Shown: one piece after another, positions 777 to 45,363 of the stretch
Layout of the letters: every line of letters begins with the position of its first letter
Position numbering within the stretch: the stretch's first letter is position 1
From: a bacterium
Lineage (GTDB): Bacteria; Patescibacteriota; Dojkabacteria; B142; OLB20
Assembly: GCA_021463645.1 (NCBI GenBank)
Contig: JAJTYI010000009.1
Span: forward strand, 29,343 to 93,342
Direction: 5' to 3'
Length of the DNA: 64,000 nt
Position numbers and translations under genes: made by a program
Notes under the pieces: generated by a model
Database searches by the model: none
What the model was told of the DNA's origin: nothing
What the model saw: only the letters and a program-made list of their open reading frames with translations

Positions 777-2750
777 ATGAAATTAGCAAGAGTATTAACT
801 TTCATAATCATGATATTTTTTGGTGTCTCCTCACTTCAAATACGAGTTAACTCCTTGTCAATAACAGAATTTGAAGGGAATAATTACTTACCACTTTTAA
901 GTGAGCTTAAAATCCAATACAACAATATTGAAACTTCTAAGATATCTACTCTCGACGAAAAAGATCAGGTAAATAAGGATGAATTTACGACCTTTGTAAC
1001 ATTAGTAGAATCAGCTAATTTAGCTTGTCAATCATTTAGTAATTCCAAGGATGGACAGAGATTCCTAGATGATACAACAGAGATAACATCTAAATTGAAA
1101 AAACTTGAAGATTTAGCAGAAATAACAGAGGACTTTGAAACAGAATTGAATAGATACATTAATAACTGTGCCAAAGAAAGAGAATATTACATGAATATTG
1201 ATGCAATTAATAATATCTTGGATGATAAGATTAATTTGAATATAATCGATGGAGTTCTGAATGGATCTATCCAATGTGAATCTCCTTCCTTACAAACCAT
1301 TACTTCCTCAACTAAATACATAAACGAAAGTTATGACAAAGTAAGAACATATACGGATAGTCTTACCTCTATTTATAATACCTCCTCCTTAAAACTTACA
1401 GAATCTGATGAGATTATAACTAAACTAAGCAAAGAGAATATTGACCTAGGGGAAGAAACGAAAAAAATTATGCAAGATTTACAATTTTTAAAATCTAAAA
1501 AAACTACTGAGCAACAAGAAATTGCGATACTACAAAGAGATTTAAACGAAGATTACCAAGCATTAACAACTTTAGATACTTATAATTACTACGGAGCTCA
1601 GACGGAAACATTTCAAAATAATAAAATGATATCTTTAAGTTTGGACGACAAGAATACTTGGTATGCTTTCGAAGACCAAGACGACTTTTTTCAATTCCTA
1701 AAATTACTTAATAATAGTAATGCGGAAGTGAGACTCATACAAGAAAAATCACTTGATATTATCGAAAAAAGAAACTCAATTGTGAAGATAAATGCTTCAG
1801 AAATCTCTAAAGCTGTTATGATTGACTTAACAACCGAGAACATTCGTAACAACAATAGTCAAATATCTGCTTTAAATGAAGAACAAAATGAAATTAAACC
1901 CAAAATTAATCAATACAATGAATATGTAAAGCAACTAAAAGTAACAGACACGCAACTTAGAAAGAATATCGCAAGTATGACTTCTGCCTTAGATCAGTGT
2001 AAAGATTACGCTATTGATAAGATAACATCATTAAAATCAAATTCAGATAATCTTAATGAAGAAATAAAATCAGAAATGAAGAAAATATATACAGAGGAAA
2101 TTTCTGATAAAGACTATTTTGTAATAGAAAACCCAACATCTGCAATAAATTTAGATGTTGCAGAATTATTAAGAATTATTGACGACTACTCAAAATTTGA
2201 ATCAAGATTCACAAATTGTAGACAATCTGATCGTATTGATATAGTGACCAATTCGAAGTTATTAGAGAGCAATGTATCTACTGGACTCAGTAATTTTACA
2301 GTTATAACCAATCCCATTAAACCTTTAGATAAGTTTCTAGATAATTCGAATACAAGATATTTAACACTTCAACCAATGACTCAAATTGATGTTAATCATT
2401 ATTCTAGTTTTTTAAATAAAAGTTTTATTGAAGATAAAAATCAATATATATCAGTTGAAGAAAATAACTTTACAATTACTTTATACCCAAATAATTACTG
2501 GTCGCAAGAAATTAAAAGTATGGAAGAAACGCACAAGATTTTTGAATGCAACAATTCGAGTTGGGAGGAACTTGAGGGGAAAAAAGAATTAGTCCTAGAG
2601 TATGGTGATTGTAAAAGCATGACAGTAGAACCGATTGTCATGGAATATACTCCTGACAAAGGAGAAGTAAATCAACTAATCATGAATGAAATTAATAGAT
2701 TTATCCAAACAAAACAAATTAAGGTTAAGGGCGAATGCAAAAATTCATAA
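777..2750 (+). CDS. Secreted or surface coiled-coil-like protein, unknown family
   Basis: 657-aa ORF with a signal-like N-terminus (MKLARVLTFIIMIFFGVSSLQ). Long N/K/E/I/L-rich heptad-like stretches and eight Cys. No family motif recognised. Confidence 0.6.
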   Translation: MKLARVLTFIIMIFFGVSSLQIRVNSLSITEFEGNNYLPLLSELKIQYNNIETSKISTLDEKDQVNKDEFTTFVTLVESANLACQSFSNSKDGQRFLDDTTEITSKLKKLEDLAEITEDFETELNRYINNCAKEREYYMNIDAINNILDDKINLNIIDGVLNGSIQCESPSLQTITSSTKYINESYDKVRTYTDSLTSIYNTSSLKLTESDEIITKLSKENIDLGEETKKIMQDLQFLKSKKTTEQQEIAILQRDLNEDYQALTTLDTYNYYGAQTETFQNNKMISLSLDDKNTWYAFEDQDDFFQFLKLLNNSNAEVRLIQEKSLDIIEKRNSIVKINASEISKAVMIDLTTENIRNNNSQISALNEEQNEIKPKINQYNEYVKQLKVTDTQLRKNIASMTSALDQCKDYAIDKITSLKSNSDNLNEEIKSEMKKIYTEEISDKDYFVIENPTSAINLDVAELLRIIDDYSKFESRFTNCRQSDRIDIVTNSKLLESNVSTGLSNFTVITNPIKPLDKFLDNSNTRYLTLQPMTQIDVNHYSSFLNKSFIEDKNQYISVEENNFTITLYPNNYWSQEIKSMEETHKIFECNNSSWEELEGKKELVLEYGDCKSMTVEPIVMEYTPDKGEVNQLIMNEINRFIQTKQIKVKGECKNS

Positions 2751-3310
2751 AACCATTATTAAATATTATCAAAGTCTTCCTACCAGCAGTAGTTTTATCC
2801 GTTTTAGTGATGGCTTATAATCTCTTGGGTGTATTTATTGAAGAAGAACCACTTTTGATGATAAGAGGTGGTTTCGATAATTCTTATGTTTCAATCTCTT
2901 TTTTTGTAATTTCAAATTTATTAACATGGTTTATAGTTGCGTATATATTCAAATATTCCAAATTATTTAATAGAAGATTTAATTATATTCTAGTTCCAAT
3001 AATTTCAACTGCATCGATTATTTTCTTTTTAGTAACATACTATGTAATTGCATTTTACTATTTAACCGGATTATTTATTTTTGAGGTAGATTTTCTATTC
3101 TCAAAAGAACTTGAAAAATCATTAGCAACATCAATATTAATTCTCCTTAATTCTGCAATCTTCATATCTTTATTCGCCAATTTGATATTAATTTTGATTG
3201 AAAGAAAAAAACCAGCACTCAAAAATGATCCGGGAACTAAGAAGGAAGAAAAAAACAATAATGAATCAGAGTCTTCAGGAGGAACGTTTGAAGACTCAAT
3301 TAGTATCTAA
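2735..3310 (+). CDS. Multi-pass membrane protein, unknown function
   Basis: 191-aa ORF overlapping the upstream gene by 16 nt. Several hydrophobic helices and a charged C-terminal tail. Confidence 0.6.
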   Translation: MQKFIKPLLNIIKVFLPAVVLSVLVMAYNLLGVFIEEEPLLMIRGGFDNSYVSISFFVISNLLTWFIVAYIFKYSKLFNRRFNYILVPIISTASIIFFLVTYYVIAFYYLTGLFIFEVDFLFSKELEKSLATSILILLNSAIFISLFANLILILIERKKPALKNDPGTKKEEKNNNESESSGGTFEDSISI

Positions 3311-3312
3311 CT

Positions 3313-5070
3313 ATGAAAATCTTAAGAAAATTTTACAGTTACGTTTGGAAATTTAAGTATTATTTTGTCACAGCGACAGTTTTGAATATTTTCATGGCAA
3401 TTTTAAGTAATATATTGCCTCTCTTATTCCGTGATGTAGTTAATTTTGCCCTTGAAGGAGAAACAGAATTCTTATTCAGATCCATACTACTGATATCTTC
3501 AATCGTTTTGGTCACATATTTGGGTGACACATTTACGATGTACATCTCCGACTTTGCTTTATTTGGAGCAGCAGCGAAATTAAAGAAAGACGTACTCAGA
3601 CACTTGCATGATTTAGATTTTAGCTATCATGCAAATAAATCTTCAGGCAAATTAATTAGCATTTTCAAAAGGGGTGAGGGTGCATTTTTTTCTTTTTATG
3701 ATGAACTGAATATTTGGATGTCTCGTGTAGTTTTCGACTTCGTCATTATAGTAGCTATCTACTCTACAATCTATCCTAAATTAATAATCATCACTGTAAT
3801 TGCATTCTTTGTAAATGCAACAGTCATGTATTTCACAGTAAAGAACAATGTAAACAAAAGAAAGGTTTTAAATAAGACTGAGGATGATGTTAATTCTCAG
3901 ATTGTTGACAATATGATTGCATTTGACTCTGTGAAATATTTCGCAAATGAGAAATACGAGCAAAAACGATTTTCTAAAGTTGTTGATAAGTGGTATCAAG
4001 ACTGTATCAACTACGCAAAGACTTTCAGAGTGATTGATTTGAGTAATGGTGGAATCAGTAACTTTGCATTTTTAGTGACTATAATTGTAGCAATAGTTGA
4101 TTTAGTAAATGGTGTTATAAACGCAGGAGACTTTATACTTGCAATATCCTTTGCTAATACGTTCTATCCCAAAATCAAATACCTAGTATTTCAATTCCGT
4201 GAACTCGCAAAAAATTATGAGGATTTAAAATCATATATGAGCATATTGGACGAAGAGGTTACTGTGGTTGATAAAGTTAAGCGAATATCATCAGAAAACC
4301 AAAAATTACTCGATGATAAAGATGGCAAGTTGGAAATCGAATTTAGAAATCTTACTTTCGGATATGATATACAAAGACCAATTTTTAATAATTTAAACCT
4401 CACAATCCGTGAAGGAGAATCTGTCGCACTTGTAGGACATTCTGGTGTCGGGAAGACTACTATTGTGAAATTATTAATGCGCTTTTTCGACCCAACTTCT
4501 GGAGATATTTTCATTAATGGAGTAAACATCAGGGAAATCCCTAAACAATCACTTCGTAAATTAATTGCTATGGTTCCACAGGAAGCTTCCTTATTTAATA
4601 ACACTATTGGTTATAACATTGGTTATGGGAATGCTGGGAAATATTCGGCAGACCAGTTAGATCAAGCTTCCCGAAAAGCTTATCTAACGAGTTTCATTAC
4701 GCAGCTTCCACGCAAATACGAAACTGAAATTGGAGAAAGAGGAGTCAAACTCTCAGGTGGTCAAAAACAGAGATTAGCTATTGCTCGGGCTTTCATAAAA
4801 GAAGCTCCAATAATCATCCTCGATGAAGCAACGAGTAACTTGGATTCAATTTCTGAACGTGAAATCCAGCAAGCATTCTGGGAACTTTCGGCAGATAAAA
4901 CCACAATAGTCATCGCACACAGACTCTCGACAATTGAGAAAGTTGATAGAATCCTCGTTTTCGATAAAGGCCAAATCGTTGAAGAAGGGAATCACAGAGA
5001 TCTAATACATCGCGAAAATGGCATCTACAAATACCTCTGGGAACTTCAATCCAGTGGGGCGATTAGTTAA
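3313..5070 (+). CDS. ABC exporter, fused permease and ATPase (MsbA/MdlB-like type I exporter)
   Basis: 585 aa. N-terminal 6-TM-like region, Walker A 'GHSGVGKTT', signature 'LSGGQKQRLAIARA', Walker B 'IIILDEATSNLD'. Starts 2 nt after the previous gene. Confidence 0.9.
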   Translation: MKILRKFYSYVWKFKYYFVTATVLNIFMAILSNILPLLFRDVVNFALEGETEFLFRSILLISSIVLVTYLGDTFTMYISDFALFGAAAKLKKDVLRHLHDLDFSYHANKSSGKLISIFKRGEGAFFSFYDELNIWMSRVVFDFVIIVAIYSTIYPKLIIITVIAFFVNATVMYFTVKNNVNKRKVLNKTEDDVNSQIVDNMIAFDSVKYFANEKYEQKRFSKVVDKWYQDCINYAKTFRVIDLSNGGISNFAFLVTIIVAIVDLVNGVINAGDFILAISFANTFYPKIKYLVFQFRELAKNYEDLKSYMSILDEEVTVVDKVKRISSENQKLLDDKDGKLEIEFRNLTFGYDIQRPIFNNLNLTIREGESVALVGHSGVGKTTIVKLLMRFFDPTSGDIFINGVNIREIPKQSLRKLIAMVPQEASLFNNTIGYNIGYGNAGKYSADQLDQASRKAYLTSFITQLPRKYETEIGERGVKLSGGQKQRLAIARAFIKEAPIIILDEATSNLDSISEREIQQAFWELSADKTTIVIAHRLSTIEKVDRILVFDKGQIVEEGNHRDLIHRENGIYKYLWELQSSGAIS

Positions 5071-5100
5071 GTACCCCTCATCGCTGTCTCTCCGCGGCTT

Positions 5101-5152
5101 GACCGCGGAGTCTCGTATATCCTCTCAAACGTACTAATCAGGAAAGCTCAGG
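5101..5152 (+). repeat. 52-nt perfect direct repeat, copy 1
   Basis: 'gaccgcggagtctcgtatatcctctcaaacgtactaatcaggaaagctcagg' is identical to 5237-5288. Confidence 0.95.
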
Positions 5153-5236
5153 TTCCCGTGGTCAAGCCACGGGAAGACTAAGAAGAACGAACCTCGCGCT
5201 GTTTCTCCGTGCTTGCCTGCCCTGCCGAAAGGGAGG

Positions 5237-5288
5237 GACCGCGGAGTCTCGTATATCCTCTCAAACGTACTAATCAGGAAAGCTCAGG
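5237..5288 (+). repeat. 52-nt perfect direct repeat, copy 2
   Basis: Identical to 5101-5152. Confidence 0.95.
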
Positions 5289-5315
5289 ATTCCGTGCTTA
5301 AAGCACGGAATGACT

Positions 5316-6254
5316 TCAGAAATCAAAATCAATCCACTTCTGAATCGCCTTCACCATCTCAACATCAGTACTCCCATGGTGACCTGCTAGATGAACTATG
5401 TCTAAAATGGAATGGGGAAGTGCCTTATGCAATTTCCAGGCAGAAATCATCGGTGTGACAATGTCGTACCGACCATTTACAATAACCATTGGAATATCTT
5501 TTAATTTCTGAATATTTTCATCCTTTAATATTTCTTCATCTTCTAGGAAATAATTGTTAACTGAATAATGAAGCATTATTGATGATGAAACAATTTCTTT
5601 CTCGATATCAATTTCATTCTCTTCATCTTCTTCGGGGAACAAACTAAGAATTGAACCCTCCCACTTCCCAAAGTTTGTAAATAACTTTTCTTTTAGTTCT
5701 TTATTATTACCTTTTGCGATTTCATATAAATATTCTAAATAATCTTCTCTTTTATCACTTGGGATAATATTCATCAAATCTTCAAATTTATCAGGAAATA
5801 GTTGATTAGCACCGTACTTAAAGAGCCAATCATTTTCTGTTTCTGATGCGAAGAAAACTCCTCTTAATAATAATTTCTTTACAGTTTCAGGATGTTTCTG
5901 AGCATACAGCAAAGCTAAGGTTGACCCCCAACTCGGTCCGTGAATGTACCATTTTTCGATATTTAAGTGTCTTCTGAGTTTCTCAATATCCTCAACTGTA
6001 TCTGACGTGGTATTTTCATCAAGTAAACCGGCAGGCTGTGACTTACCACAACCTCTTTGATCGAATAAAACTACTCTGAATCGTTTCAAATCATACGGAT
6101 TGACATGTTTAGGTTTTGAGTTTGACCCTGGTCCACCATGGATTTGAAGTACAACCTCACCCTCTGGATTGCCGTATTGGTGGTAATAAAGTTTGTGTTT
6201 TTCGCTTACTTGGAGGTAGCCGTCGTTATAGGGAGTTGGTTCTTCCTCTTTCAT
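5316..6254 (-). CDS. pip: Proline iminopeptidase (alpha/beta hydrolase, S33 family)
   Basis: 312 aa. 'HGGPGS' oxyanion motif, nucleophile elbow 'GPSWGSTLAL', and C-terminal 'AGH' typical of prolyl aminopeptidases. Confidence 0.85.
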   Translation of the reverse strand: MKEEEPTPYNDGYLQVSEKHKLYYHQYGNPEGEVVLQIHGGPGSNSKPKHVNPYDLKRFRVVLFDQRGCGKSQPAGLLDENTTSDTVEDIEKLRRHLNIEKWYIHGPSWGSTLALLYAQKHPETVKKLLLRGVFFASETENDWLFKYGANQLFPDKFEDLMNIIPSDKREDYLEYLYEIAKGNNKELKEKLFTNFGKWEGSILSLFPEEDEENEIDIEKEIVSSSIMLHYSVNNYFLEDEEILKDENIQKLKDIPMVIVNGRYDIVTPMISAWKLHKALPHSILDIVHLAGHHGSTDVEMVKAIQKWIDFDF

Positions 6255-6661: not shown

Positions 6662-7324
6662 ATGACACATACTATAACCACAAGACAAAACGAAATATTA
6701 TCCCTTATCAAGTCCTTCATTATCGAAACTGGCCAAGCACCCACGCTTACAGAGATGGAGCGAGCACTTGGTATCACTCGTCGAGCAGTTGTTAAGCACC
6801 TACAAGCACTCGAGAAGAAGGGATTAATAAATCGATCTTCATCATCTCGAGGCATCGCTCTCCGAGAGACACAGTCAGGACAGATGTTTATAGATGTAAA
6901 TATCCTCGGTTATGCAAATGCTGGAGCACCTATGGTGATAGCCCAGGAACAACAACTCGGATATCTACGAATAAACCGCAGTCTACTTCCAGTTACAAAA
7001 GACGTCTTCGCCCTTATGATAAAAGGAGACTCCATGAATATGCGCGAAGTCGATGGAGGCACACTCGAGGATGGTAAGTATGCAGTCATTGCCAAGAATG
7101 TCGATATAAAAAACGGAGATGTTGTACTAGCCATTATTGATAACTGCGCAACTATCAAAACCATAAAAAAAGACCGAAACATTGTGGTTCTTTACCCAGA
7201 GTCTACCAACACACGACACAAACCATTCTACCTAGATGCATCTTCTCTAGGAGATACAGATATCTACGGCAAAGTCGTAGCAGTTTTAGATAACCCTAAC
7301 TTCTCAACGAAACATGCAGAATAA
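6662..7324 (+). CDS. lexA: LexA repressor (S24 peptidase)
   Basis: 220 aa. N-terminal winged-HTH ('LTEMERALGITRRAVVKHLQALEKKGLI'), Ala-Gly cleavage site in 'NAGAPM', catalytic Ser in 'KGDSMN', Lys in 'TIKTIKK'. Confidence 0.9.
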   Translation: MTHTITTRQNEILSLIKSFIIETGQAPTLTEMERALGITRRAVVKHLQALEKKGLINRSSSSRGIALRETQSGQMFIDVNILGYANAGAPMVIAQEQQLGYLRINRSLLPVTKDVFALMIKGDSMNMREVDGGTLEDGKYAVIAKNVDIKNGDVVLAIIDNCATIKTIKKDRNIVVLYPESTNTRHKPFYLDASSLGDTDIYGKVVAVLDNPNFSTKHAE

Positions 7325-7784
7325 TATCTACGCACCCGAAACAACATTTTTAGACTATCAGGAGGACTTTCGTTCGACTAGATTGTACGAAGAACAGAAA
7401 AACGAATCTCGAAAGGATCTTGAACTTTCTACAGTAGCTTTTTCGACTCCTATTCGAAACGAATCTGACCTGAAACTCGACATTCAGTCATACCTTATAA
7501 AAAAGCCTTCTAGCACATTTTTTATGAAAGCAGGGGATAATGACCTTCGAAAATGGGGAATTCACAAGGGAGATTTACTTGTGGTGGATCGTTCGTTACC
7601 CATTACAGATAAATCAATAGTTGTCGTGAGCCTAGATGGTGAGTTATTAATCAAAAAGATATTAATATCGAAACACATCACCTACCTAACACCTTGGAAC
7701 ACAAGATCCACACTTTATCGTATCACTCCGGAGAATGACTTCGAGATATGGGGAGTAGTTGCCTACAATATTCATGAACTCTGA
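7314..7784 (+). CDS. umuD: UmuD-like S24-fold protein with the catalytic Ser replaced by Asn
   Basis: 156 aa. Aligns by eye to E. coli UmuD: 'FMKAGDNDLRKWGIHKGDLLVVD' against '[23 protein letters not shown]'. The Lys in 'LLIKKI' is retained. Overlaps lexA by 11 nt. Confidence 0.75.
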   Translation: MQNNIYAPETTFLDYQEDFRSTRLYEEQKNESRKDLELSTVAFSTPIRNESDLKLDIQSYLIKKPSSTFFMKAGDNDLRKWGIHKGDLLVVDRSLPITDKSIVVVSLDGELLIKKILISKHITYLTPWNTRSTLYRITPENDFEIWGVVAYNIHEL

Positions 7785-9073
7785 TGTCCTCGGATATCTA
7801 TGGTATCGTCGATTGCAATAATTTCTACGTTTCTTGCGAGAGAGTTTTTGATCCGACACTCCGCAACCGTCCCACTGCAGTCTTATCAAATAACGACGGA
7901 TGTGTCATCGCCAGATCAAACGAATTGAAAGCAATGGGAGTCCCTATGGGCGCACCTTTGTTTGAATGGAAAGATCGATTTATCGAGAACAACGTCGCTG
8001 TGCGTTCCGCAAATTTCACACTTTATCAAGATATGTCCGAGAGAGTATTTCGTTCACTCCACGAGTTTTGTCAGGAAATTGAAATATATTCGATTGATGA
8101 AGCGTTTTTGCGTATACCTATAACATCACCTGAAAGGATACTTCGAAACTCCATAGAGATGAAAGAAACGATTTATCGCTGGACAGGAATCCCGATATCT
8201 ATTGGAATAGCAAATACCAAAACATTAGCCAAACTCGCCAACAAAATCGCGAAGAAATTCATCGAAAATGATGGGGTTTATCAGATAGATGACATTACAG
8301 ACTATAGACATAATAAGTATTTAGAACATCTCGACATTGATGACATTTGGGGAATAGGTGGACGCATTGCTCGAAGACTCAAAATCTTCGATATTGCGGA
8401 CATCCCAAGTCTCCTACAAGCTGATAGACATCTACTTCGACAAGAATATGGAGTTATGTTGGAGCGAACTTGGCTCGAACTCCATAGTATCCGATGTTAC
8501 CCAATCAACCCACATCGTAGCTCGAAAAAAGGCATACTCTGTAGCCGTACGTTCAAGAAAGCATACACCGAATACAATCAAGTTGCTCAGGCAGTTGCGA
8601 GATTTACAGATAGTGCATCCAGAAGCCTAAGGGCACAGGGTTCGGTAACGTCTAGAATTTGGGTTTTCCTTACAACCGATAGATTTACTCCAGAAGGGCG
8701 TTACTCTAATTCATATCTGATAAAGCTCGAAACACCTTCTGATTACACACCACTGTTAACGAAGAGTGCACTAAATGGATTAAAGCAAATTTTCCGTTCA
8801 GGGTATAAATACAAAAGGGCAGGGGTGTTTTTAGAGAATTTCTACAATAAAGGCGAATACCAACAAAATATTTTTACTACATCCAATGCTCAGGAAGAAA
8901 TAAAACAAACCATTTTAATGAGGTCCTTTGATAAACTCAACTCTATCTGGGGCAAAGGTACAGTGAAGTTTGCAAATCAGATGGTTTTCTTGAACCCAAT
9001 CAAAGAACAAGCACTTCGTTCACCAAGATATACTACAAGATGGGAGGAGATACCGGTTATAAGGAGTCGATGA
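7784..9073 (+). CDS. umuC: Y-family DNA polymerase, UmuC type (Pol V catalytic subunit)
   Basis: 429 aa. 'DCNNFYVSCERVFDP' and 'VLSNNDGCVIARS' match the UmuC N-terminus. Its ATG overlaps the umuD TGA (TGATG). Confidence 0.9.
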   Translation: MSSDIYGIVDCNNFYVSCERVFDPTLRNRPTAVLSNNDGCVIARSNELKAMGVPMGAPLFEWKDRFIENNVAVRSANFTLYQDMSERVFRSLHEFCQEIEIYSIDEAFLRIPITSPERILRNSIEMKETIYRWTGIPISIGIANTKTLAKLANKIAKKFIENDGVYQIDDITDYRHNKYLEHLDIDDIWGIGGRIARRLKIFDIADIPSLLQADRHLLRQEYGVMLERTWLELHSIRCYPINPHRSSKKGILCSRTFKKAYTEYNQVAQAVARFTDSASRSLRAQGSVTSRIWVFLTTDRFTPEGRYSNSYLIKLETPSDYTPLLTKSALNGLKQIFRSGYKYKRAGVFLENFYNKGEYQQNIFTTSNAQEEIKQTILMRSFDKLNSIWGKGTVKFANQMVFLNPIKEQALRSPRYTTRWEEIPVIRSR

Positions 9074-9076
9074 AAT

Positions 9077-12000
9077 TTACCTCAAGAATGAGAACACCCT
9101 AGACAAACTACTGATTACTAGTTCTATTGCGCTATTAGACTCTTTCGGAGTGATTGCTACATAGTCTAATGAGTATGTCGTGTTCTCTGCATCGTCAGTC
9201 GAGACTGCTCTCAAATGATAGACCTTTCCAGGTGCGAGCCCGGAGATTACGATGGTATGATCAAGTGTAAAATTGCTATCTAACTGTGATCTCTGAGGAT
9301 AGCTACTTCCAGTTCCTTCTCCATATTCAACCTGTGAAGTTGTAGGTTCGTCTGTCGTCCAAGTCACGATAAACTGAGAGCTGTCTGTGACATTACCTTT
9401 GCCAGCTTCAATCTGTACATTTGAGATTGCAGGTGGTCTGGTGTCAGTAGCAGTTGTTATTCTCTGTGCTGTCGATGTTGCTTGATTTCCTAATTTATCA
9501 GAGCCCTTAACTAATAACTCGTAAACCGTATTTGGTAATAATCCACGGATAATCATTTGATGTTCACCACTCATTAAGTCTAGATTAACTTCTTCTCTGA
9601 TTAACTCAACATTACCTTCAGGGAAGAGACTTACCACGGATGTGACTTCTGTATTAGACTCCCAAGACACTAAAACAGTTGGTTGTGCAGCATTCTTCAC
9701 TTGTTGAATTCGTACATTCGATAATTTTGGTTGTGGCAATGTAGTGAAATCAAGAACTGTGCCTTCATAAACATAACCTTCATCATCTTCAGTATCAACT
9801 CTGAAATAATATTTACTGCCTTCACTCAACCCATCGAGAAGAGTAGTGTATCTAGACTCAAGTGGACTTGTAGCGATTTCTTTACTCGAACCAAATCCTA
9901 CCGACGTTCCGTAGAGGAAATTCACCTTTGAAGACCCTGTAGTTGTAAAATTAATAACTGCTGTACTAATTCCCACACTACTTACAACAACATCCTTAAC
10001 ACTTGGGGGTGGGGCAGTAGTAAAGGTGTATTCATCCGACAGTCCGAGATTACCGTCTTCGTCAGTCCATTTAGCTTGGAAGTAGTACGTAGTGCCCGGT
10101 TCTAGGTTTGTAAGTATTAAATCATGATCAATTCTTTGTTCAGAGTTTCCAACTTCTTCCTTGAAGTAGTCATTACTTGCAAGTCCATAAGAAATCCTTG
10201 AGTCTGAATCACGATCAGTTATCCAACTAATCCTAGCATTTCTCGTCGAAACACTACTTACAACTGGTGCTGATTCGAGGATTGCGGGACTTGTGAATTT
10301 ACCGTCAGGGAAGTTACTTCCTGTAGACGATACAGCAGAGCAGTTGTTTGTCGAATCGCATGCTCTCACACAGTAATAATGATCTTTTTGTTGAAGATTT
10401 GTATCGACATATGATCCACCTGCCGTTTCCCCAACTTTTGCGAATAGTGAGAAATTTTCACTACAGTTTGCATTTTCGGCAAACGATCTATAGATAAAAT
10501 ATTTTGCAACTCCAGCCCCTAAATCCTCAGGTTCATCCCATGATACGGTAAGTCTCCAATTCTTAGTTGTTTTAACAGATATGTCTGCAACATCTAAATT
10601 TCTAGGAACACCAGGGGCTGATGTGTTGGCGTAGAATTTGATAGAAGCATAATCTCCATAATTAATATTTGATGCTTCATCACGACTCACCACATAGAAG
10701 GTATTTTCACCAGGTTGTGTTGCAAATGCATCAGGATTTAATGAGTTACTACTTGTGAAGATACAGGTTCCAGATGTAGGAAGAGTATTAACTGTATAAC
10801 AATACGATAGGTTGGACTCCGCGCCTTGGTAGATTTCTGGGGTCAACCATGTGAATGAGAACTCATTTTTATCGTTAGTTACTGGAGTAACCGACAGATC
10901 TCGCGGTGCTGACGGTGCAGTCGAGTTGTATTTCAATATTGCCGAAATAGCGGAAGCAGATGTGTTACATGCATAGTCAAGAGTTCTTAGGTAAAATGGT
11001 GTTTCTCCAGAAGGTAGATTATCAAAATCCGCATCAAGCGCGTAAGTATTTGTAGTCAAAACATCATTACAATCTTGATCTCCGGTGTGTCCACCTCCAT
11101 ACCAAGTTCCATTGGTACCAAGTTTGTACTGATATCCTTTCACTAGTGAATGCGCATCTTGAGCCATATTTGCTCCATCGGATGGCCATGAGATAACAAA
11201 ACTATCAAATGATCTCTGATAACTTGCAGGAGCAAATAAACCTCTAGGATTTGTTGGTGGAGTATTATCAAACTTGAAGCCAAATATCTCGGGTTCTAAA
11301 TCATATACATTTCCAGTGTTATCTACTGCTCTAATGATTAAGTAATACGAATCAGTGGTTGATTGCAACCATGTGTTTCCTCTCAGATTTGTATTGGCAA
11401 AATCGATAGAATTTGTAGTCACAACAAAAGGACAAGTAGTATTTGCTGTTGAACCAGGGCTAGATCCTAGAAGCCCCTTATCGTTTGTTGGATTTCCTGC
11501 AATGTCTGGCCCAAGATATAAACAATAACCTCGAAGACCTGATCCATCGACATCATCGACACCTGCAACCCAGCTGAAATACGGCGCTTGAGAATTTGTG
11601 TAGTTATTTTCAGCGATAGTATCGCCTGATACCGTTCTTTTCAAAGTAGTTTCAGTAGCGTTAACCTCTGGTGGTATTGCATCTTGTACATAGTTGATTT
11701 GAGCACCATTAAATACTGGGGTTGTGTTTTGATTTGGTGAATTTAGAGTTGCTTTCATTTGCAAGTAACGTTTTGGAGGACTCGATATGGATAAATTCGG
11801 TGTGCTACCTGTAACTGGAGCATAATCAGACCACACGAGATTGTCTTCAGAAGTTCTAGTTTGGTAATTAATTGTGTTTCCATTTAACAATTCTGTGATT
11901 AGGAGGTTCGGGTTATTTCCCCATTGGCCTGCGTTCCCTAGGTCGAGAATGTCTGTTTCGTAGTCTCCAGTGGTTCTGTACTTATTATCATCCTCTGAAC

Positions 12001-15000
12001 CAGATTGATGGTTGGCAAGTCCAGAGTTGTAGAGTGACAATACAGCAGTATCGCTTAGAGGTGCATTAAAAATTCTTAGGTCTGAGATTGATCCATTAAG
12101 ATGCCCTACGGGCCAATTCCAAACTTGTCCTATTTTTTGGACCAGAGTTGAATTGTTTGCAGTAGTCGAGGAAAAATCTAGTGCACTTGAATTTTTTAAA
12201 ATACCATTTTCATATATAGCAGCACCAGATGCTCCAAAAGTGAATACAAAGTGCCTCCAACCTTTTCCTGTGCCAGAAAGTGTATACGATAAACCCCTGG
12301 CAGTCGCTGCAGTATCGACCCATTTAGCTGCAGTAAATTGTCCAGAAGGATTGAATGTCATGTCGTATCTACCCCAACCAGTACCCATTATTCCAAAAGA
12401 GTCTGTCCATGTTGTTTTCGTTGACAATTCATTCCAACTCCAGTTTTCTGGTCGAATCCAAACGCTCCATGTTCCCTCCTGCATTGGGAAGTCGGAACCA
12501 GCATCTGGGTCAGGAAAATATATTTCAGTTGAAGCCCTAGTAGATACAGAATTGTGAGCTTCGCCTGACCATGTATAATTACCTCCTAGACTTCCATCGG
12601 CATAGCTCGTTACTAGCAATGCTTTTGCCTCTAACTGCACGCCATCTACGTAAATCGTTTTCCCTGCCAACGCTTGAACACCGTAGGAAAGTGATGCATC
12701 AGCTGTAGCAGCTGAATATATCAATCGCCACCAGCCTCCTCCTGCATCTGTGTAACTCGTGGGAGTTACAACATTACCGCCAAAAATAAGTTTAGCTACT
12801 GTTGCTGAAACTGTTCCTCCAATATTTCCTGTGGTGCCATCGTATACATATGCAGAAAAAGTATGTGTTGAAGTAGCGTTAGGATCTATGGCGATTGTGT
12901 ATTCATCCGGCATTGTTCCGGCATTTACTAACTTTACGCTTTTACTTCCAAATTTGTAGTATGGGCTAGTGGTGTTCTCGGTGGGTGTCAGCGCAGTGAA
13001 GTTGGAAATGGTACCATCATATTGATTCAACGCTCCATGGCTACCAAAATTAATAGGGGTTGGAATGGATGAAAAACTTACAACACCTGTATTCGTTGCA
13101 ACTTGAATTCCATTAATCAATAAGTTTAAACTACCTCCACTTGTATAGTTGACTTCTATATCGTAAGTAGTTCCTGCATTTAATGTAGGGTTTGACCAGT
13201 CCGCAACTACAGTTGTTCCGTTAAATTGTCCCGCGACTCTCAATAAGGTAGATGATTCCTTTCTCAGATACAAGTAATTCGAACCAGCACCATAGGTTGC
13301 AAATATTGTTGGATTTGCTGAACCAAACTTGTCGGCATCGGCAAAATTGTGCCTAGGAGTATATTTAAACTTAATCACACCTCTATCAGCACTAAGTTCA
13401 GTTGTCGTTTGAGTCAAAGTATCTGCTCCGTCTACTCGTAATCCGGTAGTTTCACTAGAATTAGCTTCTGAAGCCGATGTTACTGTAAGTGAGACGTTTG
13501 TTAACTCAAATGAATATAGATCATCCACATAAGACGTACCCGTACCACCAACTCTAACCCATTTATTTGTCACACCGACTTTCCTAAAAACCAACGGGTA
13601 ATGTTTATAAAGGTCACCAGAAGCACCAATTGTTAAACTCGCAGTACCCCCATCATTAGCTGTAGCATTTTCCCCATATGAAAGTTGTTGACTTCCTGCT
13701 GTTTCCCTCATCCACGCACCAAGAGAATAAAAATTATTAATTGTTCCTCCATGATCATATAAGATAGTGAGTTGGCTATTAAATCTGACTCCAGAAGTTC
13801 CAGAATGAACAACTGTGGTTTCCTGGGATGAATCCCCAGCATTAGAGTATTCAGTAGTAGTATGCCCTGATGGCAACCATGGATCACCCGAACCTGTCTC
13901 AAATGAAGGATTGCTAATTTTATTAGTAAGCATTTCTACCTGATGCCAATAACACGTACCTAAACTGGCTGTATTTACTAACTTTATTCTCAAAGTTGTC
14001 ATCCCAGTAGGTGCTTCTCCTGTGAAAATGAAAGTATTTGGTGCTGTTCTGACTGATGTTGTCGTTCCTGTTAAGCTACCGATCTCGGCACCTCCAGTCT
14101 GGTTATACAGAATAATTTTTGGGACACATGTTCCATCACTATGCGCTAGTCCTCTTACTACCCAATCATTGCCTGCTGCTACTGTTTTTTCATAATAGAT
14201 ACCCTCATCAGCTGCGTCACTTGTTATTTTATATCCTCCCGAAAAAATCTTTTCATTCGAAGCTAGCGCAGTGACCGAACTTGGCGTTCCTTCGCTTACC
14301 CATCCATCAGTCGTATACGTTCCGTTAAGCATAAATCCACCAGTATTTGTCGTGCTCGTGTAAAGGAGATTCGAAGAGTGAGGATGACTCCAAGCATTTC
14401 CATTTCCAGTTGCCAATTCACCAACAGTTCCATTAGTAGGTAGTGCGAAAACAACATCCCAACTTCCAGTAATCAATGTTGGATCTTTGCCCGTTCCCGA
14501 GTTGTATATTAAATTAAGTTCATCACCATTCCCTACATCGATTCCATTGGTTCCATCAAAAAGTGGACGACGGTAAATTGTGAGGCCCTCGATGAGTGCT
14601 TCAGCTGGATTCTTATAAACAACTTCTGGTGATCTATCATCATTTCCTATTTCAAATAAAGACTGGCTACTTGGAGAACCAGAAATTACCGTATTAGCAA
14701 ATACATGTGTATCATTTATACTTACTGAAAAATAATTTGCACCACTTAAAGTCGCATATCGACTCCACCTAAATACAACATTGTAAGTTGTTCCTGCCGT
14801 CCAACTCGATACACTCGTACAAACTATATTTGACCAACCTTGGTCAAAACATAGGTTACCATCAGCTGCTTTATATATGCCATTCACCGAATAAGCATTT
14901 GTATTGTATATTATATGTAATTTCCCATCGTTTCCATTCCACTCCGGTGTTATCCAAAAGGCTATTGAGCCTTGATTTTGATCAAAAGTCTGTTTAAATG

Positions 15001-16759
15001 TACCAGCTGAATCTATATTTGAGCCAGTACTTGCTTGTATCGAATCCTGGTTAGTCGTATTATATTGCCCCTGTATGAGAACGCCAGCAGTAAACGGACC
15101 TGCACTATTCCTCTTCGCCATTTTCGCTGTAAACGTATCAAGCGTATTGTCGTAGTTGAAGTAGTTCAGTCCCCAGTTCGTGCTGTAAGTACCATGCTCG
15201 AAACTTGGATTTGTGATCAGATTAGTTGTACCTTCTTCGATAAATACTCCTTCATGTCCTGCGTAACTCTGACCCTTAACTTGTCCTGAACTTGTCGAAG
15301 AATCTATCCCGGCCACACCACTGACATATTTAGCTCCGGTGATTGTTCCATGATTTCCATTCCCACTCGCATCGATAGCTTTTCCAGAATTTCTGGGATC
15401 ATCGCCATTTTCATCCATATGGTAAACAAGTACCACATTACTATCTATCAGATCGTTCGCCGAATCTGATTCACTATATAATCTGGATACTTCTGTTTGT
15501 GTTAAATAGTTTTTCGAAATAAATACTTCATCTATCAGACCATTGTAACCTCTAGTACTCCACTGTAAATCATTAATTCTAAAAGTAGCACTTGCATCTG
15601 TAAATGTTCTATTAGTCGTTTGTGTCGTCTTAAGCACTCCATCTAAATATATCTTCTGTTCATTAGCTTTCAAAGTAAGTACTAAATGATGCCAATCAGT
15701 ATAGTTTTGTAAATTGCCAGCACTGATATGACCCCCTCCTGCTCCACTAAACCAAAAATTCATACTTCCCGAGGCATACCACTCCATATATCCAAAGTCT
15801 AGTCTCCATAATTGTGCCGATGTTGGATGCATAGGTTTCCCTTTAAACCATATAGATATACTCAACTCGTCTCCGTGGCTGAAGGTCGTACTATTCACAT
15901 AGTCGTCACTACCGTCAAAACTCAGTGAGCTCCCTCCTGAATACCTCAATGCACCCCCCTGTGCGCTCGGTATCTCCCCATCGATACATGTTGTGGTCCC
16001 ATTAAACGGACAGACCATGGTTGCTTCAGCGTCGCCGATATTGTAACCATTATCTCCAAAACCAGGGTTAGTTGCTCCAGGATTTTTATAGTAAAGATAG
16101 TAATTCCCACTTGATGCTCCTGCTGTCATCTCTGCTTGAATTGGGAATGTTACTACAGTCGCAGTAGAATCAGAACAATCCGTGGCACCACTTGCTTTGT
16201 AATAGCTTCTCGCAAGTTCAGTATGATTACCAACTCCAGTAGAATAAATAATTCTCAAGTCGTCGCAATCATTTTGAAGGTTTGAAGCGTCGAATAGTTC
16301 TTTTGTGTTTAAGGTTACTTGTATTGGTGTATTCGCAGGCAATGTAACTGCTGATAGATTTTTAACTGTTAGCTGTTTCTTGAGGTTCCAGCCCATATCA
16401 TACCAATTATCATCTTTACCCAAAGACACAGCAGAAGATGAAATCACAACATCAGTTCCACTACCAGCAGTTAATTCACTATCACCGCCTTCGACTAATG
16501 TATAGCTGGTTTCATCGAGTGCTCTCAGAATAGGAACAAGTTCAGTAACCATAGCATACGTTCCCAAGACAAAACCCAAACCCAGCATCATGACTGTAAA
16601 AGTATTCAACTGCCACCTAGCTATAGTAATCTTCTTAAAGAATAAAAATTTGGTGATTTGCTTAAGTTTTTTGCGCACGAAATTCTTTCGTACACGAAAT
16701 ATACGAGAATAGTCTCGATGCATTCTCTGCAAGGTTTTATTGGAACGCGAAACGCGCAT
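9077..16759 (-). CDS. Giant membrane-anchored surface protein (DUF2341-like, LamG/ConA-like lectin, CBM-like and FN3-like modules)
   Basis: Uninterrupted 2560-aa ORF. Basic N-terminus plus one TM (FTVMMLGLGFVLGTYAMV). LamG_3-type signatures ('LSFDGSDDYVNS', 'DASGNGNHGTITGAKYVSG'). CBM4/9-like 'NPSFEHG' and 'NPSFETG'. About 870 C-terminal aa of FN3-like modules. Confidence 0.9.
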   Translation of the reverse strand: MRVSRSNKTLQRMHRDYSRIFRVRKNFVRKKLKQITKFLFFKKITIARWQLNTFTVMMLGLGFVLGTYAMVTELVPILRALDETSYTLVEGGDSELTAGSGTDVVISSSAVSLGKDDNWYDMGWNLKKQLTVKNLSAVTLPANTPIQVTLNTKELFDASNLQNDCDDLRIIYSTGVGNHTELARSYYKASGATDCSDSTATVVTFPIQAEMTAGASSGNYYLYYKNPGATNPGFGDNGYNIGDAEATMVCPFNGTTTCIDGEIPSAQGGALRYSGGSSLSFDGSDDYVNSTTFSHGDELSISIWFKGKPMHPTSAQLWRLDFGYMEWYASGSMNFWFSGAGGGHISAGNLQNYTDWHHLVLTLKANEQKIYLDGVLKTTQTTNRTFTDASATFRINDLQWSTRGYNGLIDEVFISKNYLTQTEVSRLYSESDSANDLIDSNVVLVYHMDENGDDPRNSGKAIDASGNGNHGTITGAKYVSGVAGIDSSTSSGQVKGQSYAGHEGVFIEEGTTNLITNPSFEHGTYSTNWGLNYFNYDNTLDTFTAKMAKRNSAGPFTAGVLIQGQYNTTNQDSIQASTGSNIDSAGTFKQTFDQNQGSIAFWITPEWNGNDGKLHIIYNTNAYSVNGIYKAADGNLCFDQGWSNIVCTSVSSWTAGTTYNVVFRWSRYATLSGANYFSVSINDTHVFANTVISGSPSSQSLFEIGNDDRSPEVVYKNPAEALIEGLTIYRRPLFDGTNGIDVGNGDELNLIYNSGTGKDPTLITGSWDVVFALPTNGTVGELATGNGNAWSHPHSSNLLYTSTTNTGGFMLNGTYTTDGWVSEGTPSSVTALASNEKIFSGGYKITSDAADEGIYYEKTVAAGNDWVVRGLAHSDGTCVPKIILYNQTGGAEIGSLTGTTTSVRTAPNTFIFTGEAPTGMTTLRIKLVNTASLGTCYWHQVEMLTNKISNPSFETGSGDPWLPSGHTTTEYSNAGDSSQETTVVHSGTSGVRFNSQLTILYDHGGTINNFYSLGAWMRETAGSQQLSYGENATANDGGTASLTIGASGDLYKHYPLVFRKVGVTNKWVRVGGTGTSYVDDLYSFELTNVSLTVTSASEANSSETTGLRVDGADTLTQTTTELSADRGVIKFKYTPRHNFADADKFGSANPTIFATYGAGSNYLYLRKESSTLLRVAGQFNGTTVVADWSNPTLNAGTTYDIEVNYTSGGSLNLLINGIQVATNTGVVSFSSIPTPINFGSHGALNQYDGTISNFTALTPTENTTSPYYKFGSKSVKLVNAGTMPDEYTIAIDPNATSTHTFSAYVYDGTTGNIGGTVSATVAKLIFGGNVVTPTSYTDAGGGWWRLIYSAATADASLSYGVQALAGKTIYVDGVQLEAKALLVTSYADGSLGGNYTWSGEAHNSVSTRASTEIYFPDPDAGSDFPMQEGTWSVWIRPENWSWNELSTKTTWTDSFGIMGTGWGRYDMTFNPSGQFTAAKWVDTAATARGLSYTLSGTGKGWRHFVFTFGASGAAIYENGILKNSSALDFSSTTANNSTLVQKIGQVWNWPVGHLNGSISDLRIFNAPLSDTAVLSLYNSGLANHQSGSEDDNKYRTTGDYETDILDLGNAGQWGNNPNLLITELLNGNTINYQTRTSEDNLVWSDYAPVTGSTPNLSISSPPKRYLQMKATLNSPNQNTTPVFNGAQINYVQDAIPPEVNATETTLKRTVSGDTIAENNYTNSQAPYFSWVAGVDDVDGSGLRGYCLYLGPDIAGNPTNDKGLLGSSPGSTANTTCPFVVTTNSIDFANTNLRGNTWLQSTTDSYYLIIRAVDNTGNVYDLEPEIFGFKFDNTPPTNPRGLFAPASYQRSFDSFVISWPSDGANMAQDAHSLVKGYQYKLGTNGTWYGGGHTGDQDCNDVLTTNTYALDADFDNLPSGETPFYLRTLDYACNTSASAISAILKYNSTAPSAPRDLSVTPVTNDKNEFSFTWLTPEIYQGAESNLSYCYTVNTLPTSGTCIFTSSNSLNPDAFATQPGENTFYVVSRDEASNINYGDYASIKFYANTSAPGVPRNLDVADISVKTTKNWRLTVSWDEPEDLGAGVAKYFIYRSFAENANCSENFSLFAKVGETAGGSYVDTNLQQKDHYYCVRACDSTNNCSAVSSTGSNFPDGKFTSPAILESAPVVSSVSTRNARISWITDRDSDSRISYGLASNDYFKEEVGNSEQRIDHDLILTNLEPGTTYYFQAKWTDEDGNLGLSDEYTFTTAPPPSVKDVVVSSVGISTAVINFTTTGSSKVNFLYGTSVGFGSSKEIATSPLESRYTTLLDGLSEGSKYYFRVDTEDDEGYVYEGTVLDFTTLPQPKLSNVRIQQVKNAAQPTVLVSWESNTEVTSVVSLFPEGNVELIREEVNLDLMSGEHQMIIRGLLPNTVYELLVKGSDKLGNQATSTAQRITTATDTRPPAISNVQIEAGKGNVTDSSQFIVTWTTDEPTTSQVEYGEGTGSSYPQRSQLDSNFTLDHTIVISGLAPGKVYHLRAVSTDDAENTTYSLDYVAITPKESNSAIELVISSLSRVFSFLR

Positions 16760-43812: not shown

Positions 43813-44265
43813 ATGCTTTATATTGCTGCCGACCACAGAGGTTTTGATGAAAAAGAAAAGTTAAAGCATTTCTTAGATTTGTCTAATATTGAGTTTGTAG
43901 ATATCGGAGCAAAAGAATATGACCCAGATGATGATTACCCAGATTACGCATTTATGCTCGGAGAGTTAGTTGTGAAAGAAAACGCAAAAGGCATTATTTT
44001 ATGTGGATCAGGAATCGGAGTGTGTGTAGCATGCAACAAAGTTAAGGGAGTACGTGCAGGATACGCAGAATCTATAGAACATGCAGTAAAAGCTAGAGAA
44101 GACGACGACACAAACATTTTAGTCCTCGATGATATGACATTCGAAGAAGACGAAGATTTCCCAATCATTACTGCTTGGTTAAATACAGATTTTTCAGGAG
44201 AAAAAAGACATATAAGAAGATTGAAAAAAATCTCAGATTACGAAGATAACTGGAAAAATTTATAA
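43813..44265 (+). CDS. rpiB: Ribose-5-phosphate isomerase B
   Basis: 150 aa. 'IAADHRGF' and '[21 protein letters not shown]'. Confidence 0.85.
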
Positions 44266-45363
44266 TTTAATCTCAGCCTCAATAAATTCCTCTAAACCAC
44301 CATCTAAAACTGATTCAGGATGTTGGCTCTCAGTGTTTGTTCTTAAATCCTTTACTAGTTTATATGGATGTAACACATAATTTCTAATTTGATTTCCCCA
44401 ACCTGCAATTTTGTGTTCTCCTTTCAGACTACTTTTTTCCTTTGACTGCCTTTCCATTTCAATTTGGAAAAGTTTACCTCTCAACATGTTCATCGCAGAC
44501 GTTTTATTTCTCAGCTGACTTCTCTCTACAGAACATGCTACCACGATACCGGTTGGTATATGTGTTAACCTCACCGCAGTAGCCACTTTATTTACATTTT
44601 GACCTCCTGCTCCTGAGGAACGGACTGCCGTGAATTCAATGTCTTCAGGTTTTAGGTTTACCTCGAAGTCATCTTCGATTATTGGCATTACTTCTACTAA
44701 TGCAAAAGATGTTTGGCGCAAGCCTTGTGCATTAAATGGTGATACTCGCACTAATCTGTGTGTTCCGTGTTCGTGTTTCAAATATCCATACGCAAATCTA
44801 CCTTTGACTTCAATTGTTACAGTCCCTATACCAGCTTCATTACCTTTAATAATATTAGTGATTTCAGTTTCGAAACCTTGCTTCTGGAAATATTTTAGAT
44901 ACATACGCATAAGCATTTCTGACCAATCATTCGCTTCCGTTCCACCTTGCCCGGCATGAATTGATAAAATTGCATCATTTTCATCATACTTTCCATGTAG
45001 ATATGTTGTAATTTCAATCTTATCAAGCTTTTTATCAAGTGTATCGCACATATCGATAATTTCCTGCCAAACATCGGGATCTGGTTCTCCAGGAGTGTTG
45101 TCCTTATCTTCAACCATTTCTAACATCAACTTTATCTCTTCAAGCTCTTCATCATTTTTATTTAACATTTCAATATCACCTTCCAAAGTACTCAAGGTCT
45201 TCATAACCTTCTGTGCATTTTCCTGATTGTTCCATAAACCTTCTTCTGATGATTGTGCTTTAACTACTTCTAGTTTGGACTCCAATGCTTCTGGATTCTT
45301 CTTCTTTTTAATGTCACTGATTCTTTGTTCAAGAATTTTTATTTTTTCTTTAACTTCTTGCAT
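44260..45363 (-). CDS. prfB: Peptide chain release factor 2 (no programmed frameshift)
   Basis: 367 aa in one frame. 'SPF' tripeptide in '[10 protein letters not shown]' and GGQ in '[10 protein letters not shown]'. Confidence 0.9.

Follow-up and report, generated by a model that had tools for sequence, protein, structure and literature searches.

The element described here fills a 245-nt intergenic gap (5071-5315) in a 64-kb stretch of DNA from a Dojkabacteria genome; the whole 64,000-nt stretch that was analysed is called the window. To the left of the gap lies an MsbA-like ABC exporter gene, the final gene of a + strand operon, with its stop codon 15 nt ahead of the first repeat. To the right, a prolyl aminopeptidase gene (pip) runs convergently and ends in a stop codon at 5316-5318, 1 nt off the GAC (5312-5314) that flanks the last hairpin. 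The synteny of the two genes is kept in all relatives compared, and the aminopeptidase homologues carry the name Candidatus Dojkabacteria. An earlier reading of this DNA, made from the letters alone (the sequence-only reading), had described the gap as GC-richer than its surroundings and as the sole convergent junction in the window that is not collapsed. Both observations hold: the GC content of the element is 0.51-0.57 against approximately 0.24-0.45 nearby (window mean approximately 0.35), and the eight other convergent junctions all have 10 nt or less or overlap. GC skew has no turning point of the kind that would mark a replication terminus or dif.

The surrounding genes offer some observations of their own. 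A thioredoxin-like gene (69-698) lies upstream of two conserved genes (777-3310) without a Pfam or NCBIfam match, which in turn precede the ABC exporter gene; the first encodes a 657-aa, N/K/E-rich protein with an N-terminal hydrophobic segment and the second a 191-aa hydrophobic protein, probably a multi-pass membrane protein. On the other side, the region 6662-9073 comprises, in this order, a lexA-like gene, a second S24 peptidase gene (umuD-like) and a Y-family polymerase gene (umuC-like). In one relative (L025; comparison loci are given L numbers throughout) a single 368-aa ORF combines the lexA-like gene and the second S24 peptidase gene, and this relative also has a split ABC gene. A giant ORF of 2560 aa occupies 9077-16759 on the - strand, for which the annotation in relatives is Laminin_G_3 plus fn3-type domains. 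Shine-Dalgarno (SD)-like sequences are missing from the 30-nt stretches ahead of 44 ORF starts (19284, 26891 and 44260-45363 among them), and many genes of the window have a TATAAT-like box 10-25 nt ahead of the start codon. Together, these features suggest that translation in this Dojkabacteria genome is mostly leaderless or SD-independent.

Architecture of the element

The element consists of two units (5079-5185 and 5194-5321) with a period of 136 nt, each made up of a hairpin A, a 42-nt spacer and a hairpin B. The features are listed below, with the hairpins numbered SRM-1 to SRM-4 after the repeat family to which they probably belong.

3313-5070, + strand: MsbA-like ABC exporter gene, permease fused to ATPase (Pfam ABC_membrane and ABC_tran; NCBIfam MsbA-like)
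5085-5115, + strand: candidate SRM-1 (hairpin A1); GTC at 5086-5088, stem 5090-5097/5103-5110, loop CTTGA, trailing TC at 5111-5112
5111-5152, no strand: spacer or core 1, 42 nt, identical to 5247-5288
5149-5178, - strand: candidate SRM-2 (hairpin B1); reads GTCTTCCCGTGGCTTGACCACGGGAACC on the - strand, GTC at 5178-5176, stem 5153-5161/5167-5175
5179-5200, no strand: linker between the units, TAAGAAGAACGAACCTCGCGCT, missing in one-unit alleles
5201-5251, + strand: candidate SRM-3 (hairpin A2); GTC decayed to GTT (5201-5203), stem 5205-5211/5240-5246
5247-5288, no strand: spacer or core 2, identical to core 1
5285-5314, - strand: candidate SRM-4 (hairpin B2); reads GTCATTCCGTGCTTTAAGCACGGAATCC on the - strand, GTC at 5314-5312, stem 5289-5299/5301-5311
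5316-6254, - strand: prolyl aminopeptidase gene, pip (NCBIfam TIGR01249, 323 bits, above the cut-off; Pfam Abhydrolase_1)

Tandem units with an identical core had been noted from the letters and were recovered as a direct repeat of period 136 (5101-5179 and 5237-5315), the first 52 nt of which are identical at 52 of 52 positions; a 43-nt core occurs only twice in the 64 kb, against 0 expected. The most conserved block of the spacer reads GTATAYCCTCTCAA on the + strand (TTGAGAGGRTATAC on the - strand). Stem length in the four hairpins ranges from 7 to 11 bp. A1, previously described as a stem with a CTTGA loop, is indeed a perfect 8-bp palindrome (dG -15.4 kcal/mol), and B1 and B2 are perfect palindromes of 9 and 11 bp. 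Compensatory changes reported for the B stem are also real, with pairs 5153/5175, 5155/5173 and 5161/5167 altered on both sides in unit 2. For A2, the 22-nt loop insertion (5216-5237) and one T.G pair in the stem (5210/5241) were found as described, but the inner stem at 5220-5237 has six Watson-Crick pairs and a G.G mismatch instead of the 7 bp claimed, and this GAAA-capped mini-hairpin is a weak fold only (ViennaRNA).

Each unit is strand-symmetric, in that hairpin A plus flanks (GTCW-CTCCGYG..CRCGGAG-TCCCG) and hairpin B plus flanks (CGGGA-TTCCGTG..CACGGAA-WGAC) are reverse complements. The 3' part of the linker repeats the left flank CCTC..CGCTGT. Small ORFs inside the unit were considered and rejected, their length not being conserved.

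Alleles and copy number

Comparison of 24 syntenic loci, representing 11 distinct versions, places the element at the same ABC-exporter/pip junction in approximately ten Dojkabacteria lineages, with one to three units. Alleles with one, two or three units differ by exactly 136 nt (109 versus 245 nt; 157, 293 and 429 nt), and the one-unit allele L006 equals the window minus exactly 136 nt. One-unit alleles are composed of the A of unit 1, the core and the B of unit 2, which is the expected product of recombination between identical cores. Unequal recombination or slippage between the identical cores of 52-77 nt would be a plausible way of adding or removing one 136-nt unit.

The 22-nt insertion is also present inside the A loop of L002, L004, L005, L021 and L027, and in reversed orientation inside the B loop of L027 and L014. 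The core is lost in L014 and L025, in which a single hairpin is left, and decayed in L024. The B1 and B2 types are old alleles found in distant lineages (B2 type in L017, B1 type in L024), which rules out a recent B duplicate pair that later co-evolved. At least one hairpin is retained in every lineage in which the two genes are directly convergent. In the more distant relatives L020 and L026, other small genes occupy the junction and the element is missing. The junction cargo consists of a YezG-like ORF in L020 (3937-4257) and a HicA-like toxin with its partner in L026 (3478-3976). The ABC/pip junction is a hot spot for accessory DNA.

Degenerate material is seen around the element in some relatives. 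On the - strand of the L017 locus (4065-4194), the unit has an extra AT-rich stretch upstream of it, approximately 135 nt long, with the half-repeat remnants CGCTGTTACTCCGCGG and CATTCCGCG, which look like traces of a decayed second unit. In L002 (4940-4968) and L010 (4940-4966), both on the - strand, a third, weaker hairpin (GGTGGCACAAGCCACAGG and GGTGGCACAAGTCACGGG) stands between B and the stop codon of pip; it may be a degenerate extra palindromic unit and is absent from the window. In the flanking genes, the ABC gene of the window is 100% identical to L006 at the DNA level and pip is a mosaic, with an L006-like 3' third and an L002-like middle; this pattern places the predicted recombination breakpoints at or near the repeat cluster.

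The sequence-only reading had named an assembly artefact as something that would undo the duplication. A 136-nt period with 52-77 nt of identity can confuse de Bruijn assemblers, and the difference between two and three units (L002 versus L004) could be affected. However, independent assemblies (L002/L003) carry two units, the alleles hold a unique junction and two different B hairpins, the two cores of L021 (a GTDB MAG) differ at five positions, and a k=31 contig of another run stops precisely 30 nt short of the branch point between unit 1 and unit 2. An artefact is hardly credible.

Conservation and covariation

For the window lineage against L010, L017, L024 and L027, four-fold degenerate sites in the two flanking genes have reached saturation (0.30-0.38 identity). 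Despite this, the element is 63-81% identical in lineages with saturated flanking four-fold sites, and no local identity peak that would signal recent transfer is seen along the region. Hence, judging from the alignments, the element is maintained by purifying selection. Conservation extends into the spacer: over its first 24 columns, four of the five lineages compared have 18-23 identities and L024 has 13. The near-invariant columns of the alignment are GTC/GAC (8-10, 142-144) and the trailing TC/GG(A) (55-56, 95-96).

Two local hairpins are supported by RNAalifold and by pair counting, with 94% of cells paired across ten units. Four pairs covary, with 14 cells changed on both sides, a level matched in 0 of 500 shuffles. 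A long hairpin that pairs A-left with B-right, the single-sequence MFE structure, shows no covariation and was rejected. RNAalifold leaves the spacer unpaired on the raw alignment and predicts two short helices (3 + 4 bp) on a corrected alignment, which is compatible with a modelled four-way junction with short spacer helices that rests on one covarying pair (57/94).

Relation to NTS/SRM repeats

Oriented hairpin repeats termed NTS/SRM have been described as targets of small GIY-YIG Ssn ssDNA nucleases (Chenal et al., Nat Commun 2025, PMC11893778). The repeat is a hairpin-forming semi-palindrome of 20-50 nt, oriented by an upstream (H)GTCW(Y) and followed by RNCY, and the described families usually number tens to hundreds of copies (PMC11893778). 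Ssn nucleases are 94 aa long and bind and cut the repeats as ssDNA, on one strand only, and ssn genes are typically flanked by the repeats (PMC11893778). In mutagenesis, the 3 nt upstream of the palindrome mattered for SsnA cleavage and the C after it for binding, the identity of the loop was dispensable, and extensions at the loop position were tolerated (PMC11893778).

We consider it probable, at roughly 60%, that the four hairpins of the element are NTS/SRM-family repeats in a small cluster, a DNA-level element and not a new RNA gene. The near-invariant alignment columns coincide with the positions that matter for SsnA cleavage and binding. Forward hairpins follow the order GTCW-palindrome-(N)C, with A on the + strand, B on the - strand and GTT in A2 of the window; the C after the palindrome is present as GGAG-TC following A and as GGAAT-CC or GGGAA-CC following B on the - strand. 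A1 (5085-5115) matches the published SRM search sequence, HGTCWYN(0-2)YYVSBRHN(0-5)WNVSBRGN(0-2)RNCYNB, for which 0.07 matches are expected per 64-kb window. A2, B1 and B2 miss this strict motif because of GTG/CAC in the stem or a long loop or insertion, and 24 of 63 reference sites that have the same flanks and loop miss it for such reasons too (39 pass). Beyond the element, the search sequence finds no further SRM-like hairpin in the 64-kb window. A relaxed scanner for GTCW plus a hairpin was discarded as too permissive (3.8 hits per simulated window), and literature searches for the motif strings returned no relevant match.

Resemblances to Neisseria repeats were found as well. On the - strand, B2 shares GTCATTCC...GGAATC with the Neisseria NTS consensus CGTCATTCCCGCGMAVGCGGGAATCYRG, and its GTCATTCCGTG..CACGGAATCC resembles Neisseria NTS CGTCATTCCCGCG..GCGGGAATC. 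The palindromic core of NTS is the Neisseria dRS3 repeat, ATTCCC-N8-GGGAAT; B2 reads ATTCCGTG...CACGGAAT and so has the same ATTCC/GGAAT arms, although the stem of the element is longer and the loop is different. Recombination mosaics are known from dRS3-adjacent genes in Neisseria, and the genes flanking the element are likewise mosaic between strains.

Related copies also occur in phages and plasmids. A scan of viral contigs with the B1 hairpin found GTCATCCCGTGGCTTGACCACGGGATCC in a GC-rich Mu-like phage, a copy that is 26/28 identical to B1 and 26/28 to the B of L002, both read on the - strand. Plasmid BLAST of the phage 39-mer recovered Rhizobium copies with a compensated stem, GTCATCCCAGGGCTTGACCCTGGGATCC; in L039, a locus on a Rhizobium plasmid, a 94-aa GIY-YIG gene lies between two such copies in convergent orientation. 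The stem-free pattern GTCATCC-N5-CTTGA-N5-GGATCC occurs in 44 viral contigs (63-64 sites), compared with two contigs for a permuted-loop control. Among the 60 sites listed, the two N5 segments are fully complementary in 47, with at least eight stem variants, and inverted doublets are frequent. Gene-less convergent SRM doublets exist elsewhere, with spacers of 25 and 121-125 nt. Set against the SRM-ssn-SRM layout of a cassette, each unit has the same layout minus the gene and looks like a MITE/REPIN-like derivative; each is predicted to be a gene-less, convergent SRM doublet of REPIN/BIME-like form, and the locus a putative small BIME-like cluster. By analogy with these repeats, the hairpin covariation is not an argument for RNA, because compensatory stem change with constant flanks is normal for SRM DNA repeats.

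The element thus shares with NTS/SRM repeats the upstream GTCW, the C after the palindrome, compensatory stem variation, a dispensable loop, an A1 that passes the search sequence, and the occurrence of copies in inverted pairs and clusters next to membrane-protein genes. It differs in being confined to one locus with 2-6 copies, not tens to hundreds, in having no ssn gene seen nearby, in the conservation of its position and spacer across deeply diverged lineages, and in its host, a CPR bacterium (CPR is unmentioned in the main text of PMC11893778). Further copies elsewhere in the genome, which the sequence-only reading had looked to, did not appear: the core is at one locus per genome record matched (once in each of two genome records and once in one metagenome contig, with one genome per species searched), and nhmmer, a custom covariance model with filters off and PU regexes found no further copies in the window or in relatives. 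Pfam and tblastn searches for a GIY-YIG/Ssn gene found none, either in the 64-kb window or in the flanks of relatives (approximately 150 kb). The element as a whole had no BLAST match among phages and plasmids, and in viral contigs the core pattern gave chance coding matches only and the 23-nt insert pattern none.

Alternative explanations

The alternative offered by the sequence-only reading was an unknown structured RNA. In a lineage-specific version of this idea, the RNA would be a 3'UTR, belonging to the ABC-exporter operon (+ strand) or to pip (- strand), or else a processed sRNA of approximately 100 nt; its two stable stem-loops would protect a conserved core, mostly unpaired, with a protein or a target RNA as binding partner. 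Such an RNA would suit a GC-rich intergenic region within a 33% GC genome, purifying selection that covers the unpaired core, the covarying hairpins and the RNAalifold four-way junction, as well as the GNRA loops on hairpin A in L017 (GUAA) and L025 (GAAA). G.U cells also somewhat outnumber A.C cells on the + strand, and the GNRA loop and G.U pair had been said to make sense for a + strand RNA only. That argument does not carry: a wobble census gives 5-10 events on the + strand versus 2-5 on the - strand, the RNAalifold energy is slightly better on the - strand (-25.3 versus -21.8), and the strand evidence is therefore ambiguous. Rfam 15 has no match at gathering score in the window, only chance matches (E>1, permissive filters) in the region, and none at E<=1 in seven homologous loci, in line with the earlier remark that no known RNA family is recognizable; a tRNA/tmRNA search was also negative. 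Neither strand of 4600-5800 has a sigma70-like promoter or an intrinsic terminator, no target of the core at 44 gene starts beats shuffles, and an anti-SD seed makes no sense because the genome lacks SD sequences. Moreover, L014 and L025 have lost the core and keep one hairpin only, and the hairpins bear the oriented flanks of a DNA repeat family, with one forward copy per strand. The element does resemble 3'UTR-derived or tandem sRNAs (csRNAs, LhrC), in which two stem-loops bracket a conserved pyrimidine-rich stretch and copies are in tandem, but it differs from them in having no promoter, U-tract terminator or strand signal and in its genome without SD use. With no Rfam match, promoter, terminator or clear strand, a structured RNA is not the best reading, and we regard it as unlikely; such an RNA could also be a secondary exaptation of an SRM doublet.

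The other half of the original description, a REP/BIME-like element, stands in outline: palindromic units alternate in orientation around a conserved spacer, at an extragenic convergent junction and in variable tandem number. What does not stand is membership of the RAYT-associated family, and dispersal. Like REP, BIME and REPIN elements with RAYT in E. coli and Pseudomonas, the element has inverted palindrome doublets, predicted ssDNA hairpins and variable tandem clusters, and in outline the partner would in both cases be a small nuclease, of HUH or GIY-YIG type. Mobilization by a RAYT (IS200/IS605-like Y1 transposase) is nonetheless very improbable, given that the conserved 5' tetranucleotide is GTCW and not the GTAG typical of REP, that no dispersal is seen in the window or relatives, that the RAYT gene suggested as a check has no counterpart among the window ORFs (no Y1 transposase), and that the signature, with its other conserved flank and other enzyme family, fits the Ssn-linked repeats instead. 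MITEs (Correia, ERIC, RUP) are similar in size (approximately 100-150 nt) and in having terminal inverted repeats around a short core, but the element has no target-site duplication, is single-copy and is syntenically conserved. Another proposal is that generic bidirectional terminator or insulator hairpins serve the convergent genes and resemble SRMs by chance. Each transcript would then meet a strong hairpin right after its stop codon, and the retention of at least one hairpin wherever the genes are directly convergent agrees with this. U-tracts are absent, however, as are hairpins from all eight other convergent junctions of the window and from relatives with other junction cargo, and identity of flank and loop to a dispersed family (26/28 nt; 44 contigs versus 2 in the control) makes chance unlikely; we judge the proposal improbable.

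Several named motifs were rejected. An IHF site (WATCAANNNNTTR) is absent from the core on inspection; a hammerhead-like CUGAUUAG...GAGAC on the - strand has two core mismatches and no Rfam match; and for box C/D, neither the motifs nor the neighbour genes fit. TIGR (Tas) arrays and CRISPR, for which we looked for direct repeats of 8-12 nt or 25-36 nt, variable spacers and an adjacent Nop-domain or Cas gene, do not agree with a period of 136 nt, identical and lineage-conserved spacers, inverted repeats, and an ABC exporter and pip as neighbours.

Possible function and significance

The element is best classed with a repeat family described recently, as a new but atypical member, and not as a new RNA class; what is unusual is that it keeps to one conserved site and is not dispersed over the genome. 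Ssn recognition does not account for the conservation of the spacer. One possibility is that the spacer is a fossil of the 5' end of a lost ssn gene: the window reads PU - 22 nt - TTG AGA GGA TAT and the Rhizobium cassette of L039 reads PU - 21 nt - ATG GCA GGA TAT, a likeness without statistical support (tblastn for a GIY-YIG relic in the spacer, E=15, not significant). More tentatively, at well below even odds, the element would be a domesticated single-locus SRM doublet, in which the convergent pair and its 42-nt spacer are kept by purifying selection for a host function, the repeat family not having spread in this streamlined CPR genome. That function may be a two-strand ssDNA cleavage or recombination boundary beside an exporter operon in a naturally transformable episymbiont, or it may lie in an RNA exapted from the doublet.

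By analogy with the published system, an SRM would fold into a hairpin when the DNA is single-stranded, during replication, transformation or repair (Chenal et al. 2025, PMC11893778). An Ssn-type nuclease would then bind the hairpin and cut a few nucleotides upstream of GTC, on the forward strand of the SRM alone (PMC11893778). With a convergent doublet, cutting could take place regardless of which strand is unwound or taken up. Within the Dojkabacteria clade, selection has kept the putative doublet at one site beside a membrane-exporter operon. Its likely role there would be to delimit or modulate the recombination of incoming DNA or, alternatively, to form the fixed ends of a former mobile cassette.

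Patescibacteria are thought to depend on the uptake of host DNA. The first description of SRM/NTS repeats and Ssn nucleases dates from 2025, and the identification proposed here would extend the SRM family to Patescibacteria. A single, syntenic doublet under selection in a CPR bacterium would be a clean natural case in which to study the role of a single SRM pair, free of the background that hundreds of copies bring. The locus also illustrates how a DNA hairpin repeat can mimic an ncRNA gene through compensatory stem changes and a high GC content in an AT-rich genome.

Related repeats in other contigs

The contigs that carry related repeats show further arrangements. In L055 (1789-1969 and 9923-10102) and L082 (5772-5948 and 8298-8475), gene-less convergent doublets with a conserved spacer of approximately 122 nt are repeated within the contig, and these look like a REPIN/MITE-like subfamily of Ssn-related repeats. 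The Mu-like phage contig L038 has two SRM copies (928-959 and 1381-1412) in inverted, divergent orientation 421 nt apart, one of which lies inside a 288-aa ORF and encodes VDPVIKSRDD. In L039, the flank CCCCACTCTCC and part of an SRM are included in a 31-nt inverted repeat (233-263/392-422, 97% complementary) beside the end of a transposase gene of the IS4 family; this may reflect the insertion of an IS into an SRM.
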